From a virus (taxonomy: Duplodnaviria > Heunggongvirae > Uroviricota > Caudoviricetes), in the IMG/VR virus record IMGVR_UViG_2534681831_000020, positions 1 to 35,013 of that record: a stretch of 35,013 nucleotides of DNA; one strand, given 5' to 3'. Each line of letters begins with the position of its first letter. Within the stretch, counting starts at the first letter, position 1. Shown piece by piece: positions 5,457 to 12,607 of the stretch. A program made the translations under genes and the position numbers. The notes beneath the pieces were generated by a model that was not told the origin of the DNA, searched no databases, and worked only from the letters and a program-made list of their open reading frames with translations.

Positions 5457-6485
5457 TTATTTCACCTGTACCACCACAAACTCATCCGGATCCGGCAGCA
5501 CCATCAGCGGAGCGGACTGCGTCATGGTGAATTCACAGGACGGATCGCCCACGGTCAGCCAGTGTTTCGGGTAACGGGAAGAAGCCACCACTCCTTCAGA
5601 CAACGCCTGTGCATCCTTAATGGCACCATAGCAACGAATCCCCTCTGCCGCCGTATTCCCCAGCACCAGCATGCCCTCCGGCAGATAACGTTTTTCGGTA
5701 CCGTCCTCTGCCACATAAGACGTTTTCGCCACCACAATGGCCAGATCGCCGTAATACCCCTTGAAGGACACCACTGCGCCCAGATCTTTCACTGCCGTTT
5801 CGAGTTGTGAATTTGAGCCGCGACGGGTATCCAGTTTTTCGCGGAACAGCTTAAAGCCATTCAGCAGACGCCAGACCGTACCGTCCATAATGGCGATATT
5901 CACAAGGCCGCTGGCCTGATCGCAGTAGAGGTCAATATCATGCGTCGGATCAAACGTATCACGGTCCTGCTCAGACCATTTTTTACCGTCAGCCTGCTCA
6001 ATGTTATTTCCTTCAGAGCGCCCGAAATCCACCTCGACAGTATCAAACTGATCCCCTTCCATGGTGTATTTGCCATACAGCACGGCATTCACCGCCTGCA
6101 TTTCTTCCACCTGGACAATGGCGTGCTCTTCCTGTTTGAGGTTATCGGTAATGATACGCAGACGACGGTAGGCCGGGTCGTTCAGCTGAGCCGGATCTTC
6201 ACCAGGAAGGCGCTCAACCGCCTGCTGGTAATTAAATTCGTGTTTCGGCTTGACGTAGCCCGGACGCAACACGCGGGTTTCACCACCACGATGGCGCAGC
6301 ACTTTTCCTTCAACGATCGGGGAGACATAGGCCGCCACCGGCGTTTTTCCGGTAATTTTGTCCAGCATCACCTCTTCGGTGTGGAAATTCACCGTACGGC
6401 GGAAAAACAGCTCCAGAAACAGCGCACGAAATTTCACTTTTTGTTCGGTATAACCGAGTAACTGGCGGGTCGTAAACAATCCCAT
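5457..6485 (-). CDS. E: major capsid protein E
   Basis: 342 aa, MGLFTTRQLLGYTEQKVKFRALFLELFFRR...SAPLMVLPDPDEFVVVQVK, collinear with lambda E along its length. Confidence 0.9.
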   Translation of the reverse strand: MGLFTTRQLLGYTEQKVKFRALFLELFFRRTVNFHTEEVMLDKITGKTPVAAYVSPIVEGKVLRHRGGETRVLRPGYVKPKHEFNYQQAVERLPGEDPAQLNDPAYRRLRIITDNLKQEEHAIVQVEEMQAVNAVLYGKYTMEGDQFDTVEVDFGRSEGNNIEQADGKKWSEQDRDTFDPTHDIDLYCDQASGLVNIAIMDGTVWRLLNGFKLFREKLDTRRGSNSQLETAVKDLGAVVSFKGYYGDLAIVVAKTSYVAEDGTEKRYLPEGMLVLGNTAAEGIRCYGAIKDAQALSEGVVASSRYPKHWLTVGDPSCEFTMTQSAPLMVLPDPDEFVVVQVK

Positions 6486-6542: not shown

Positions 6543-6890
6543 TTACGGCAGAGCCGCGTGACTCAGGGCTGTGCCGGCAAAGGCATTTGCCTTTTTGTGT
6601 TCATCCACACTGTCAGGCCAGCGGATTGCCTCCGTCGCAAAGGTCCCCGACTTGTAATAGGTCAGCACCGTCTCTGTGCCTTCAAGCGGCAGTACCAGTA
6701 TGCCAACCGCACTACCGGCTTTCTGTCCATCCCAGACCACCAGTTTCCCGGTGGCTTCATCCAGCATCAGGGGCGTCAGAGCCGGTGTTGCAGAAGAAAT
6801 CCCGCTGCTGCCTGTGGCGGTATGAGCCGGATCATTACCAGCAAAAATACGTACTTCCGCACGCTGTTCAGTGATGGTTTTCGTCACCAT
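6543..6890 (-). CDS. D: head decoration protein D
   Basis: 115 aa with the conserved NDPAHTAT...TPLMLD...VGIL...YKSGTF motifs of lambda D; position between C and E. Confidence 0.8.
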   Translation of the reverse strand: MVTKTITEQRAEVRIFAGNDPAHTATGSSGISSATPALTPLMLDEATGKLVVWDGQKAGSAVGILVLPLEGTETVLTYYKSGTFATEAIRWPDSVDEHKKANAFAGTALSHAALP

Positions 6891-6926: not shown

Positions 6927-8432
6927 TCATGGCATGGCCATGAGCATTTTCACGTCCGCATCACCGTCTGCTGACGTCTGTGACACGCCACCCCGCACCG
7001 CTGCCGGTGAATGATTCGCCATGAAATGTTCAAACAGGGCGGTTGTGGATGCAGAGACCGGTTCGGCCTTACCTGATCCCGCAGCCAGCACAGCCCGGGC
7101 GTTCTCCACGGTCATTCCCGGGCAGGCCGCCAGTTTTTCAGCCTGCGCTTCTGCCCCTTTTGCCTCATCCAGGGCCATGATCTGATCACGAAGTGAGGGC
7201 CCGGCATTCGCCTGCGGTGAGGCAGCCAGGATCGGGCGGGCTTTTTCCTCCGTCATCTCCGGCATCGCCGCCAGCGTTGCCGCCAGTTGTTCACGACCTT
7301 TCGCTTCTTCACACGCCATAATGCGATCGGCTTCACTCTGCGCGGATGCCACCGGCTGCTGCGGTGCCGCCGCGGCCAGAATAGCCCGGGCCTGTTCAAT
7401 GCTCATGCCCTGTTGTCCTGCCAGCATCGTGGCAAGCTGTTCACGTCCTTTCGCTTCCTGACACGTCAGGATCCCCATCACTCGCTGGTTCTCCTGCGCG
7501 GCAGCTTCCGTTGCAGTTAATTGCGGCATAGTGCCTCCTGTATCATGAGTGTTCAGCGCCGCAGCCATCACGCTGATGGCATCCGACGCATTGATTAATT
7601 CATCCGCCAGTCCGGCCTTAATAGCGGACTGACCTTCAAAAACGGCAGCCTCTGTCCCCGTGACAGCTTCCACAGACAGCCCCGTATACATCGCCACTTT
7701 TTCGGCAAACATCCGGTGCGCCGCATCAACCCGCTGCTGCATGTCCTGACGCACCTCTGCCGGTAAGGCTTCAAACTGATTGCCATCCACCTTGTGCGCC
7801 CCGGCATAAATCAGCGTGATATCCACCCCGGCCTGCGCCAGATGACCGGCATAGCTGACATGGCTCATCATCACGCCAATGGAGCCGATACGGGATGTCT
7901 GGGTAACCAGCCGTCGGGAGCAGGCCGACGCCAGCAGCATGGCTGCAGAACAGGCCGTGTCATTGCACAGTGCCCAGACCGGCTTCTGCTGACGGAGGCG
8001 GTAAATCATGTCAGCGCAGTCAAACGCGCCGGCGGCCTGCCCGCCCGGACTGTCAATGTCCAGCAGTACGCCCCGCACCTGGCTATCTGCCATTGCCTGC
8101 TGAAGACAGGCGACAATGCCGTCATAGCCTGTCATTCCGGAAAATGGCCGCATACCGCCCAGCCGGTGCACCAGCGTGCCGGTCACCGGCAGTACAGCAA
8201 TACCGTTCACCACCCGGTAAACACGGGCCGGTCGTTTACCTCCGGCCATGTACTCGTCCGTTTCAGCCAGCATTCCGGGAGCATCAAGCTGTACCTGTTG
8301 TTGTGGTACCGAAAGACTTGCTGCCCCCATCTCGCGCCCGAGCGCGCAAAAGAAAACCCGCGCATAGGCGGGCTCCAGAAGCAGCGGTTCATTGAATGCT
8401 GCGGCAATAATGTGTGAAAGATTACGTCTCAC
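6927..8432 (-). CDS. C: head maturation protease / scaffold (lambda C with in-frame Nu3-like region), S49 peptidase family, with triplicated C-terminal module
   Basis: 501 aa, MRRNLSHIIAAAFNEPLLLEPAYARVFFCAL...GIAVLPVTGTLV...TGYDGI matches lambda C; 62 aa longer than lambda C (439 aa) because of three tandem ~49-aa repeats. Confidence 0.85.
   Translation of the reverse strand: MRRNLSHIIAAAFNEPLLLEPAYARVFFCALGREMGAASLSVPQQQVQLDAPGMLAETDEYMAGGKRPARVYRVVNGIAVLPVTGTLVHRLGGMRPFSGMTGYDGIVACLQQAMADSQVRGVLLDIDSPGGQAAGAFDCADMIYRLRQQKPVWALCNDTACSAAMLLASACSRRLVTQTSRIGSIGVMMSHVSYAGHLAQAGVDITLIYAGAHKVDGNQFEALPAEVRQDMQQRVDAAHRMFAEKVAMYTGLSVEAVTGTEAAVFEGQSAIKAGLADELINASDAISVMAAALNTHDTGGTMPQLTATEAAAQENQRVMGILTCQEAKGREQLATMLAGQQGMSIEQARAILAAAAPQQPVASAQSEADRIMACEEAKGREQLAATLAAMPEMTEEKARPILAASPQANAGPSLRDQIMALDEAKGAEAQAEKLAACPGMTVENARAVLAAGSGKAEPVSASTTALFEHFMANHSPAAVRGGVSQTSADGDADVKMLMAMP
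7036..7480 (-). repeat. three tandem ~147-bp (49-codon) in-frame repeats inside gene C
   Basis: Protein repeats IMGILTCQEAKGREQLATMLAG..., IMACEEAKGREQLAATLAAM..., IMALDEAKGAEAQAEKLAAC...; matching DNA repeats around 7160, 7300 and 7450 (ttcacgNcctttcgcttcNtNacacg). Confidence 0.6.
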
Positions 8433-10014
8433 GTGGTGTTGTCTCCTCTTCCGGCCTGCGACTCTCCGCTATCTGCTGCTGATACGCCTGCGCTATCCAC
8501 ACCGGGCGTGAGAGTCCGGCTTTTTCCCGCTCTGCAGATTCCCTGACCTGCTGGCGGAAAATGTCCTGATAATCCTCGCCCATCAGCGCCAGCTCTTTCT
8601 CATACGTGCTCAGTCCGGCCTCAATGCGCATCACTGATTCCTGGACTTCCTTGAGCCCGTCAATGGCCATTCTTCCGGCACCAATCCACTCTGCCCGTGA
8701 CCAGGCTGATCGCGCCTGATAAAAATCAAAACGTGCCCGTGGCGGACGAATAATCCCCCGAAGAAGTGCCTCTTCCAGCCAGCAGGAAAACATCTGCGTG
8801 GCCAGTCGGGCCGCAATAAATTTTCGCCGCCCCATAAAATAGCGCCACGACTCATTGGCGGAGGCGCGGGCACTTGAGTAACTGACCTTCGAGTAATCAC
8901 GGGACAACTGTTCGTAGGAAACGCCAAGACCGGCGGCGATATACCGCAGCAGCGCCTGTTCAAGCGCCGAAAATCCATTGTCTGAATCCTGCGCTGTCTG
9001 CAGTTTCAGATCATCACCAGGGAAAAGGTGCGGAATTTTGACACCGCCCAGCGTCACGTGATTCGTGTCATACCAGCTGGAGAACTTCTCCAGAATATTA
9101 ATAAGCGGATTATCCTTCTGCTCCTGTGGCGCGCCGGCGATATATTCAAAGGCCTTTTCGGTATCAAGTTCACTTTCAATCGTCGCTGCATACATCGCCT
9201 TCACTATGGCCGACTGAAGCTGTGTTGCCTGCAGGGAATCGAGCATCTTCAGCCGTTCCATGACGCTGTAAAACTGATTAGCCCCACGGGTCTGCCCGTC
9301 CTCCACCGGCTCGAAAATATGCAGCATAGCCGGACGCCCGGTGGGAAGTTCACGCGGGATCCGTTCCCATCGTCCACTACCAGAGAACGGAAAATCATCC
9401 TCACAAATATGGTACGCGACGGCACGGCCATATCGATCGACCTCCACACCGGCCCGCAGAAAACGGTTCCCCATACCGTGTCCAGGCGTGTCCACCCGTT
9501 TCGGACTCACGGCTTTAAAACGCGTACGGAATAACTGCGTGGTTTCCGTATCCCAGACCGGCTGCACAAAGATTTCGCCGTTAAACGCATGAACGCCCAC
9601 ACCTTCACGGATAAATTCCGTGAACGTGCGTTTTCCTTCCACGTCGATCTCGCCAGACATCCCTTCGGCGTATTCCGACCAGGCCGCCTCCACCTCATCG
9701 ACAAAGCTTTTTGCTGCGGTCTCCCGCATCCCCAGCCAGCGCCAGTTCGGACGGTAGCTGATCAGAAACATATGCCCGACAATGTGATCCTTATGCAGAG
9801 CCACCGCATTAGCCGCTATTCCGTTATTGCGCACCAGATCATCTGCCCGGGCATTCCCCAGACGCAACGCGGGTAGCAGGGCCGCATCGGCACTCTGCGC
9901 CGGTGGCAACCACTCCGCCATTTGCCCGCCAAATCCTGCACCGCCCCCGTTGTAGCTGAGACTCTCACGAAGCGGAACGCCGTTCACATCAATCAGGACA
10001 GGCGTTCGTTTCAT
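8422..10014 (-). CDS. B: portal protein B
   Basis: 530 aa, lambda B-like along its length (lambda B is 533 aa); overlaps C start and W end as in lambda. Confidence 0.9.
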   Translation of the reverse strand: MKRTPVLIDVNGVPLRESLSYNGGGAGFGGQMAEWLPPAQSADAALLPALRLGNARADDLVRNNGIAANAVALHKDHIVGHMFLISYRPNWRWLGMRETAAKSFVDEVEAAWSEYAEGMSGEIDVEGKRTFTEFIREGVGVHAFNGEIFVQPVWDTETTQLFRTRFKAVSPKRVDTPGHGMGNRFLRAGVEVDRYGRAVAYHICEDDFPFSGSGRWERIPRELPTGRPAMLHIFEPVEDGQTRGANQFYSVMERLKMLDSLQATQLQSAIVKAMYAATIESELDTEKAFEYIAGAPQEQKDNPLINILEKFSSWYDTNHVTLGGVKIPHLFPGDDLKLQTAQDSDNGFSALEQALLRYIAAGLGVSYEQLSRDYSKVSYSSARASANESWRYFMGRRKFIAARLATQMFSCWLEEALLRGIIRPPRARFDFYQARSAWSRAEWIGAGRMAIDGLKEVQESVMRIEAGLSTYEKELALMGEDYQDIFRQQVRESAEREKAGLSRPVWIAQAYQQQIAESRRPEEETTPRET

Positions 10015-10217
10015 AACCTCACTCCCAGCGGACGACGGCGACGCCGGGTTGTCCCCAGTACCGACTCCGCATCATTGATCGCCCGGTTAAGCTCATCCAG
10101 AGAAGCCGCCGTATATTCAATTCTGCGACCATCTTTCTGGACAGACACCACCCGTTTACCGGTTAATAAATCAAGGCGCGCCTGACGCAGCGCCTGCAGT
10201 TCAGCGACTGTAACCAT
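10011..10217 (-). CDS. W: head-tail joining protein W
   Basis: 68 aa, ...LLTGKRVVSVQKDGRRIEYTAASLDEL...RRRR, lambda W-like (same length). Confidence 0.75.
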   Translation of the reverse strand: MVTVAELQALRQARLDLLTGKRVVSVQKDGRRIEYTAASLDELNRAINDAESVLGTTRRRRRPLGVRL

Positions 10218-12129
10218 TCACTCCTCCGGACAGCTTCGCTGCCAGTTCTTTAAGGGTTGGCCGGGTCGTCTCTTCTTCCCGGGATTTTGCCAGTACAGCC
10301 AGATCAAGCTGCCAGCGTTGCACGGACACACGTAATGCCGCGTAGGCATACACCAGGCAGTCCAGCGCTTCGTTACGCCGCTTTTTGTTATCCCACAGCA
10401 GACGCATCTTTCCTTTTTCCCACTTCTCCACAAGCTCTTCCGCGACCAGTTGCTGCGCCTCTGTCTGCGAAAAAATCTCCGGATCATCAGGAAAACGGAT
10501 GGCATACGACGTGGCTTCATCCGCAGGCGTGGGATCGGCTTTCATACGGGCATAGAGAATTTCTTTTGCGGTGTCCGTTCCCACTTCACACAGATACACG
10601 CCCCGCTGATTGCGGGTTTTTGGCATGGTGATCACCGGCTTGCCATAGACAGATGCGCCTTTTACCGGCAGCACCCGGAAAACACCGTGTTTTTTTGATC
10701 TCTGATAAACAATTTCACCATCGATCCCCCCGGTGTCCCAGCAGACACGGGAAATAGTCATTTCGGTGCCATCCGCATGGCGGTATTTTTTGTTGATCGC
10801 CGCATCCACACGTAACAGCGTCTCTTCCTCATCAGGACGCCCCATAATGATGATTTTATCCACCAGGAAGGCTTCCTCTCCCGGAGCCCATCCCCAGACA
10901 TACATCTCAAAACGGTTTCGCTGCGAGTCAATGCCCGCCGTCAGATAAACCACCCGGGCAGGCACCGCCGCCGTGTAACGCACCACCTTATCCATCAGTA
11001 CCTGGTGATCGAGTTTTTCGCCCACGGCCTCTTCCCAGGTCTCGCCCAGCGTGGTGTTCACAAAGGTTTTCAGGCCGTTGGGATCTTTCAGTGCATCCAG
11101 CCAGTCATAGACAATCTGTACCCAGGTGGTGAACGGACTGTACGCCGTCCAGATATGGAACGTGATGGAGCGCGGCGGCGGAATTTCATCACCCCGGGCG
11201 CTGAAAAACGTCAGACCGTCACGGGTCCACATGCCTGTGTTTTCACAGATCCACCGCCCGTTGCTCTGGTCCAGTTCAGACTGATGGATCACGCAGCCAT
11301 GATGTTCACAGAGGTAGAAAACACTTTCAGGGCTGTCCTTCTCCCATTTAAGCCCAAAAGGCGTGGACTCATCGCCAAATTTCAGATACTGCTCCTCCCC
11401 ACAGTGCGGGCAGGGCACATAAAAACGCATAAAATGCGCCGACTCGTTAGCGGCTTTTTCGATCTGGCAGGTGCCTTTGATTTTAGGCGTCGAGCCGCGA
11501 ATGGATTTTGGCCACACCGACCCCTCAATACGCTTATCCCCCAGCAGGGTTGGCGAGCCCTCTTTTTCGACATCCGGCTCGAACGAGGAAAGTTCGTCAT
11601 AGCAGACCACGTCCACGGATTTTTCACGGTAGTTTTTGGCGGCAGCGCCGCCCAGGCACCAGAAACCGACGCCCGATGAAAAGCGTTTCAGCGTGAGAGT
11701 ATTGTCACGATGTTTACGACCCAGCCATGGGGAAAGGTCTTTCAGGCATGGCACGTTCCGAATCGTCGCCTCCACGTGAGACTTCATAAAATCTTCAGCG
11801 GCAGAATCCGTGGGCTGAAAAAGCAGACTGTTTCGGGATTTATGCTCAATAAAATACCCGACCACCCCCAGCAACATCTTTGTATAGCCAACACGGGCAG
11901 ATTTAATCAGATTAACAGTGCGGATCTGATCATTCCCCATGCTGTTCATGATGGCGATCTGGAATGGCAGCGTTTTCCATTCGCCCTCACCATATGAAGA
12001 TTCTTTAGGCAGATAATAATTTTGATCAGCCCATTCAACTGGCGTCACCGGCAATGCCCTTATCAGGGGCTGTAATGCAGTTGTGACAGCGCTCATCATA
12101 TTATTCAGTTGTTGCTCTGATATATTCAT
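10201..12129 (-). CDS. A: terminase large subunit A
   Basis: Start set at the internal ATG giving MNISEQQLNN..., as lambda A begins MNISNSQ; collinear with lambda A including the WADQNYYLPKES, GDKRIEGSVWPKSIRGSTPK and CWDTGGIDGEIVYQRSKKHG regions; overlaps the Nu1 3' end as in lambda. Confidence 0.9.
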   Translation of the reverse strand: MNISEQQLNNMMSAVTTALQPLIRALPVTPVEWADQNYYLPKESSYGEGEWKTLPFQIAIMNSMGNDQIRTVNLIKSARVGYTKMLLGVVGYFIEHKSRNSLLFQPTDSAAEDFMKSHVEATIRNVPCLKDLSPWLGRKHRDNTLTLKRFSSGVGFWCLGGAAAKNYREKSVDVVCYDELSSFEPDVEKEGSPTLLGDKRIEGSVWPKSIRGSTPKIKGTCQIEKAANESAHFMRFYVPCPHCGEEQYLKFGDESTPFGLKWEKDSPESVFYLCEHHGCVIHQSELDQSNGRWICENTGMWTRDGLTFFSARGDEIPPPRSITFHIWTAYSPFTTWVQIVYDWLDALKDPNGLKTFVNTTLGETWEEAVGEKLDHQVLMDKVVRYTAAVPARVVYLTAGIDSQRNRFEMYVWGWAPGEEAFLVDKIIIMGRPDEEETLLRVDAAINKKYRHADGTEMTISRVCWDTGGIDGEIVYQRSKKHGVFRVLPVKGASVYGKPVITMPKTRNQRGVYLCEVGTDTAKEILYARMKADPTPADEATSYAIRFPDDPEIFSQTEAQQLVAEELVEKWEKGKMRLLWDNKKRRNEALDCLVYAYAALRVSVQRWQLDLAVLAKSREEETTRPTLKELAAKLSGGVNGYSR

Positions 12130-12607
12130 CAAGTAAATCCGGTAATTTATCCCCTGCCCGCGCACACTGATTTGCCCCCTTAGCAATAAGGGTTTTCAGA
12201 TGGTCAAGATGGCGCGGTGTTAAATCAGGAAACTGTCGCTGCATGGATAAAGGGATGGAATCAAGCGTACTGGATAACGCCATTGCCAGCTTACTGAGGG
12301 CAAAAATACAGAATCCGGCGTCAATAAGCTTACCTTCGGTTACCTGATTTTTAAGTTTTTGAGCTACGGCCTGTTCTTCTGTCAGTTCAGCTCTGGCCCG
12401 AAGCAGCCTTTCCTCCAGATCGCCCTCGTCATCAGGTATTCTCTGATTGTGTTGTCGCCGCTCGCGATCTATCTCCAGTACAGTTTTAACGTCATAAAAA
12501 ACTTCCCTCCCCCGACGCTCAACAGGAGGAACGCCCCATTTATCAAATGCCTGAACAGATATACCGATGGAGGAGGCCATATCACTTTTATTCAATAAAA
12601 AGGCCAT
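12101..12607 (-). CDS. Nu1: terminase small subunit Nu1
   Basis: C-terminal part ...IDAGFCIFALSKLAMALSSTLDSIPLSMQRQFPDLTPRHLDHLK resembles lambda Nu1; start chosen at ATG 12607 (MAFLLNKSDMASSIG, preceded by GGAGAGGAG); the track ORF extends to 12712. Confidence 0.75.
   Translation of the reverse strand: MAFLLNKSDMASSIGISVQAFDKWGVPPVERRGREVFYDVKTVLEIDRERRQHNQRIPDDEGDLEERLLRARAELTEEQAVAQKLKNQVTEGKLIDAGFCIFALSKLAMALSSTLDSIPLSMQRQFPDLTPRHLDHLKTLIAKGANQCARAGDKLPDLLDEYIRATTE

Follow-up and report, generated by a model that had tools for sequence, protein, structure and literature searches.

Within the window, i.e., the whole 35,013-nucleotide stretch of DNA that was analysed (positions 1 to 35,013 of IMG/VR record IMGVR_UViG_2534681831_000020), one gene encodes a phage head protein whose C-terminal region contains the same module three times in tandem. 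The gene is the open reading frame (ORF) 6927..8432 on the minus strand (501 amino acids [aa] plus stop), a homolog of lambda C in an E. coli lambdoid prophage. We think it likely that the three units are ancient copies of a Nu3-type scaffold core, that this region is translated twice, and that the module is a protein-contact unit, with copy number setting the valency or length of the scaffold.

The three units were delimited by local alignment and with a hidden Markov model (HMM), and all are on the minus strand. Unit 1 occupies 7359..7493 (residues 314-358, ENQRVMGILTCQEAKGREQLATMLAGQQGMSIEQARAILAAAAPQ), unit 2 occupies 7209..7337 (residues 366-408, SEADRIMACEEAKGREQLAATLAAMPEMTEEKARPILAASPQA) and unit 3 occupies 7068..7196 (residues 413-455, SLRDQIMALDEAKGAEAQAEKLAACPGMTVENARAVLAAGSGK). 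Their EAKG anchors are at residues 326, 376 and 423, giving spacings of 50 and 47 aa (150 and 141 bp). Pairwise identity between the units is 46-54% for protein and 53-59% for DNA, and 16 columns are invariant among the three. Local BLOSUM62 scores between units are 85-99, compared with 26 +/- 5 for shuffled sequences (z = 12-15), and 0 of 2000 shuffles reached the real scores. With the HMM of the units, exactly three domains are recognised in the 501-aa protein (residues 320-358, 368-408 and 415-455), and the PHROG family phrog_8399 (Nu3-type head scaffolding protein) matches it in three stretches (E = 6e-33). The original prediction, which was made from the letters of the window alone, had placed a triplicated module in the C-terminal region of a head protease/scaffold at 7036..7480 (residues 318-466), and these results bear it out. 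The repeat is visible at the protein level only: Tandem Repeats Finder and a direct-repeat search saw no period of ~147 bp in the DNA, because the units share too little nucleotide identity for DNA repeat finders.

The copies had also been predicted to be diverged and genuine, and the modest DNA identity between them agrees with this. An assembly artefact was considered and rejected because the same arrangement occurs in two independent phage 21 records (GenBank M81255.1 and the complete genome OL657228.1) and in many E. coli genomes: 1865 of the 5426 complete ones (about a third) contain at least 80% of the 603-bp C-terminal region. That region is 100% identical to its counterpart in E. coli strain 95NR1.

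Phage 21 has the same gene, an annotated nested 200-aa scaffold gene with its ribosome-binding site (RBS) that matches the one predicted here, and the same three repeats. Across the full 1506 bp, its genes 5 and 6 share 96% DNA identity with the gene in the window and encode a protein of the same 501-aa length, so its gp5 (head-tail preconnector) and gp6 (scaffold) differ from the window by only ~4% of nucleotides and ~5% of amino acids. M81255.1 ("Bacteriophage 21 head gene operon"), which is attributed to Smith and Feiss (Gene, 1993), has three repeat_region features inside gene 6. These are labelled "Tri1 box", "Tri box" and "Tri3 box", each with "function unknown; putative", and they map onto units 1, 2 and 3 at 7359-7462, 7212-7322 and 7068-7181, respectively. 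The triplication is thus already known, having been annotated in phage 21, and it is ordinary. Since the Tri boxes are already in M81255.1 and roughly one in three complete E. coli genomes carries the triplication, the finding in itself matters little. A literature search on the phage 21 Tri boxes, Nu3 domain structure and the C-termini of S49 scaffolds found nothing usable in the library that was searched. What goes beyond the existing annotation is the age of the triplication, the selection on each unit, the breadth of the module, its lack of a curated model and the series of copy numbers described below, all of which we regard as useful context and unsurprising.

The assignment to lambda C, which was part of the original prediction, follows from the peptidase domain, a whole-length family match and lambda-type neighbours. 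Residues 146-293 (7554..7997, minus strand) form an S49 serine peptidase domain (Pfam Peptidase_S49, PF01343; E = 4.4e-36, 124.6 bits against a cut-off of 24.9), and the NCBIfam model TIGR00706 (SppA_dom) covers residues 78-290. The 501-aa protein matches phrog_53 (head maturation protease) across its whole length (E = 6e-227). Together with the ORF call and the DNA identity to phage 21, this makes 6927..8432 a protease/scaffold fusion gene homologous to both lambda C and phage 21 gene 5. Upstream there are a lambda-family portal gene (Phage_portal_2, 8422-10014), gpW, terminase gpA and Nu1. Downstream there is a gpD-type decoration protein (HDPD, 6543-6890) and a gpE-type major capsid protein (Phage_cap_E, 5457-6485). 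The portal, decoration and capsid genes were identified by domain match and are all on the minus strand, so the order portal - C - D - E is the same as in lambda.

Lambda C and Nu3 resemble the window's proteins in gene order, S49 domain, predicted nested-gene design, module and tail motif, but they differ in how many modules they have and in what precedes them. Lambda C (439 aa) has the single homologous copy that had been predicted (residues 363-400, HMM E = 1e-17), and this copy follows ~47 aa of low-complexity sequence. By tblastn, its best match in the window is unit 2 (60.5% identity). The C protein of Aeromonas phage phiARM81ld (440 aa) is built the same way, with a single module and ~47 aa of low-complexity sequence before it. 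The original prediction had explained the greater length of the window's protein by the repeats. The two lengths it gave, 501 and 439 aa, are correct, but the difference of 62 aa does not come from two extra modules alone. Modules and linkers add ~97 aa, part of which is offset by a much shorter low-complexity segment ahead of module one: from the internal start onwards it takes up 12 aa here, compared with ~47 aa in lambda.

That internal start belongs to a predicted nested gene, 6927..7529 on the minus strand, which keeps the frame and C-terminus of the protease gene. The same span is the coding sequence (CDS) '6' in M81255.1 and 'scaffolding protein' in OL657228.1, and by homology to these annotated genes and to lambda Nu3, the ATG at 7529-7527 is predicted to give a separate 200-aa scaffolding protein. 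A Shine-Dalgarno sequence, AGGAGG, can be read 4 nt upstream of this ATG (7534..7539, minus strand), and both phage 21 records annotate an RBS at the equivalent place. We also considered further internal starts at the Met of each unit and rejected them: only ATG 7529 has a well-spaced Shine-Dalgarno sequence, and the AGGAG before Met319 is 12 nt away.

Lambda Met309, the homologous counterpart of the phage 21 gene 6 start, has the same AGGAGG context (cAGGAGGgcgaATG). Because of this shared context, the homologous lambda scaffold is 131 aa, compared with the predicted 200 aa here, and a 131-aa Nu3 fits the 131 positions of phrog_8399. The nu3 CDS of the RefSeq lambda genome (NC_001416.1; L003 833-1438) begins instead at C codon 239, giving 201 aa, and its upstream context is weak. 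The RefSeq start therefore conflicts with the conserved start preceded by a Shine-Dalgarno sequence, a side result of modest value.

The module is found well beyond these phages. When a profile of the three units was searched against 1.84 billion representative proteins (E <= 1e-3), it found 426 proteins. Of the best 150 of these, 133 have a single copy and 17 have two or three copies, and nearly all of the 17 are proteins of the phage 21/Gifsy type or fragments thereof. A homolog search with a distant single-copy C-terminus gave only 6 matches, so a profile search of the larger collection was needed, and in this search single-copy forms make up the C-terminus of S49 peptidases of ~420-450 aa, and one match in that collection is named by its source after Burkholderia phage BcepNazgul. 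The nearly invariant positions of the family are an I, E-A-K-G-R, several A/L and the Met of the tail. The consensus of the module is …I..EA.GRE..A..LA….M….A…LAA and is followed by a tail motif; both are present in the window. Judged by this conservation, scaffolds linked to S49 proteases widely share the module as their core. It is covered by no model in Pfam or NCBIfam, so the core of a large scaffold family is without a curated model or solved structure, another side result of modest value.

The tail motif, F-E-x-x-M...P-x-V-G, comes ~10-30 residues past the module and reads TALFEHFMANHSPAAV here and TALDRLMQGAPAPLA in lambda. By sequence comparison, the conserved tail in the window spans residues 462-479 (6996..7049, minus strand; STTALFEHFMANHSPAAV), is predicted to be helical and corresponds to NPFEAAMN..HPNVGADG in distant relatives. 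In proteins of the phage 21 type the module is repeated and the tail motif is not. Two distant scaffold-like proteins from the search of representative proteins, P0173 (198 aa) and P0257 (194 aa), have two module copies each. Since their sequences differ from the phage 21 type, they suggest independent duplications of the module in other lineages.

Structure prediction gives an outline of the unit. AlphaFold modelled the 200-aa scaffold from a shallow alignment (predicted local distance difference test [pLDDT] 60.8), so this model was used for secondary structure only: it has a pattern of long helix, loop and short helix three times, with disordered linkers between. With an alignment of 127 sequences, the model of unit 3 plus the tail reaches a pLDDT of ~80 over the module and falls below 50 in the linkers and at the extreme C-terminus. 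Its short helices are RDQIM, EAQAEKLA and TVENARAVLAA, and a further helix covers the tail motif. This partly disordered picture, as predicted, agrees with the title of a lambda paper in the reference list of PMC9295703, which calls gpNu3 intrinsically disordered yet functional.

We therefore picture the region as follows, and the picture is conditional on the predicted internal start and on the models. One frame would be translated twice, as the C-terminus of the 501-aa S49 prohead protease and as the separate 200-aa scaffold. Nested protease/scaffold pairs are also found in herpesviruses (UL26/UL26.5) and in phage Mu (I/Z), where the shared C-terminal region brings both proteins into the procapsid, and in phage P22 a small helix-turn-helix element of the scaffolding protein, gp8, contacts the coat protein. 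The herpesvirus, Mu and P22 systems use different protease families, the PDB sequence and Foldseek searches saw no likeness between them and the window's protein, and we know of no description of tandem repetition of the binding element in any of them. Because the window's protease has scaffold sequence at its C-terminus, it would likewise be carried into the procapsid through that shared sequence, and it would later degrade the scaffold.

Each unit of ~40-45 residues would be a small cluster of short helices (a helix, the EAKGRE turn, a helix, a PGMT loop and a helix ending in LAA). Units would be joined by flexible Pro/Ala/Gln-rich linkers, like beads on a string, with the single tail motif (FExxM..P) after the last. 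From this anatomy and from the interactions known in lambda, we infer a role for the module as a unit of protein-protein contact, which may act in self-association and/or in binding the inner face of the capsid protein and the portal. A curated list of lambda interactions includes Nu3-Nu3, Nu3-C and Nu3-B (PMC3224144), and the two-hybrid screen reported in the same paper adds Nu3-E. The list also states that portal incorporation requires Nu3 and that Nu3 may be degraded by C (PMC3224144). Three copies, compared with one in lambda, would raise the valency and reach of the scaffold and may partly replace lambda's low-complexity spacer. The original prediction had suggested that the repeats may alter scaffold stoichiometry or protease processing. 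The exact number would not be critical, having drifted between two and four in E. coli prophages by unequal or microhomology-mediated recombination within the repeats.

This drift can be seen in the lengths of close relatives. The original prediction had proposed aligning related phages to look for variation in copy number, and such variation exists: relatives have 1, 2, 2.5, 3 or 4 units. The length classes were taken from the nearest 120 protein clusters, every one of which comes from E. coli or Shigella. Proteins of 451/452 aa (25 clusters, including an O157:H7 protein) have two units, i.e., a unit 1/unit 2 hybrid plus unit 3. Those of 472 aa have 2.5 units, with unit 1 joined in register to the second half of unit 2 and followed by unit 3. 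Those of 482 aa also have 2.5 units and account for 66 clusters, one of which, P0016, is indexed in 3592 collection blocks. The form in the window, 501 aa, has three units, and proteins of 551 aa (2 clusters) have four, the extra one being a unit 3/unit 2 hybrid. All of the variant junctions are in register. A deletion of 57 bp between two CTGGC(G/T)GC microhomologies, which encode "LAA" motifs, accounts for the 482-aa allele. The 451-, 482- and 551-aa alleles sit in complete-looking clusters of head and tail genes, and the E, D and B proteins beside them are 94-100% identical to those of the window.

Three other E. coli homologs are probably from rearranged or decayed prophages. P0001 (657 aa) has a 156-aa tandem duplication that begins where the protease domain ends and extends into unit 3, while P0085 (577 aa) and P0088 (721 aa) have tail-fibre-like sequence fused after unit 3.

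A natural allelic series of 1, 2, 2.5, 3 and 4 units beside near-identical capsid and portal proteins could be used to address the effect of scaffold valency and length on procapsid assembly, a third side result of modest value. It is very unlikely, in our estimation, that the series reflects a valency-tunable binding unit with functional effects, i.e., an adaptive polymorphism and not neutral slippage. If it did, copy number might change the kinetics, fidelity or size of procapsid assembly, and it might be selected via capsid-hijacking satellites or defence systems that sense head assembly proteins.

Several points count against three repeated contact units as the explanation. The tolerance of two to four copies is suggested by prophage sequences, and in the phage collection the isolated phages with this type of gene all have three units. 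Unit 3 is without the nearly invariant Arg of the EAxGRE motif (it has KGAE), so the three units may differ functionally. Overall confidence in the structural models is low (mean pLDDT 61-64), and a Foldseek search with the model of unit 3 plus the tail turned up nothing significant, the best E values being 4.3 (PDB) and 1.0 (BFVD); the top weak BFVD matches are other S49 proteins. A sequence search of PDB likewise gave no relative, its best match (RNF31, E = 0.83) being unrelated and at chance level. We accordingly rejected any claim of fold membership, such as likeness to known coat-binding helix-turn-helix domains of the P22 gp8 type, for which there was no sequence or Foldseek match using a model of moderate confidence, at which a distant resemblance could be missed.

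The age of the triplication can be judged from relatives that are more diverged. STM2605 of Salmonella phage Gifsy-1 (498 aa), a homolog of lambda gpC, has three units in the same order, and unit for unit these are 69%, 79% and 62% identical to those of the window. At the DNA level the two genes are ~73% identical (58% of the gene aligned), and their tails have diverged. Three diverged database lineages also have three units. Unit 1 of the window shares 67-76% identity with its counterparts in Gifsy-1 and in two diverged database lineages, but only 46-54% with the other two units of the same protein. Since the units are orthologous by position across lineages, the triplication predates the divergence of those lineages.

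Purifying selection acts on each unit. When the window is compared with Gifsy-1, the proportion of nonsynonymous differences (pN) is 0.16-0.26 per unit and the proportion of synonymous differences (pS) is 0.60-0.74, which is saturated. The ratio of nonsynonymous to synonymous substitution rates (dN/dS) is ~0.1-0.25 where it could be computed, i.e., for units 2 and 3 (dS is saturated in unit 1), and 0.19 for the protease domain. In linker 1 and the C-terminal tail, pN is 0.5-0.6. Low pN in every unit, saturated synonymous sites and a protease-like rate mean that all three copies have been kept by selection on the protein.

These results bear on whether the extra units are inert filler, i.e., a neutral flexible spacer like the Ser/Thr/Ala/Gln segment of lambda, with a single unit or the tail motif doing the work. 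Copy number does vary from two to four beside near-identical capsid, decoration and portal proteins, lambda does have ~47 aa of low-complexity sequence where the window's protein has modules, and the nearly invariant Arg has been lost from unit 3 in the window and from unit 1 in Gifsy-1. A spacer would not, however, be expected to keep the invariant positions of the family in each unit, to evolve as slowly as the protease domain next to a much faster linker and tail, or to preserve positional orthology across diverged lineages. The purifying selection on each unit thus weakens the spacer explanation, and we consider it unlikely.

It is quite unlikely that the units are cassettes for cleavage by the S49 prohead protease, in which case triplication would give more cuts, smaller fragments and easier exit of the scaffold. 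The most conserved motif does lie in an exposed turn of the predicted structure. However, ~40 residues are conserved and show a hydrophobic helical pattern, more than would be required for a cleavage site, and the literature that was read gave no cleavage-site data for this scaffold family.

A periodic element in the DNA or RNA (e.g., repeated regulatory CII sites or the antisense ORF 7287..7520) is effectively excluded: OL657228.1 annotates two 'CII binding site' matches inside the region (TTGYN6TTGY; window 7277-7290 and 7511-7524, plus strand; L002 1851-1864 and 2085-2098), but this pattern occurs 7 times in the window compared with 7.9 expected by chance, the units are too diverged in DNA for repeat finders to see, and the comparison with Gifsy-1 shows conserved amino acids alongside saturated synonymous sites. 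CII binding sites within the repeats were therefore rejected as being at chance level and probably meaningless.

Some observations elsewhere in the window do not concern the scaffold. The terminase large subunit gene (10201-12186, minus strand) was called mechanically from a TTG, giving 661 aa; the gene is called at 642 aa in close relatives (L006 and L009), so a downstream ATG is probably the true start. A 645-aa ORF at 16900-18837 (minus strand) has DUF1737, a SASA sialate O-acetylesterase domain and DUF6645, making it a NanS-p-like esterase of the kind typical of late regions in lambdoid and Stx-type prophages. At 21237-22127 on the plus strand there is a 296-aa transposase ORF (HTH_21 plus the rve integrase core), and because it opposes the strand of most large ORFs around it, an insertion sequence element has apparently inserted into the prophage. 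Finally, the prophage encodes a 237-aa AraC-family regulator at 24053-24766 (minus strand), which is possibly a cargo or moron gene.

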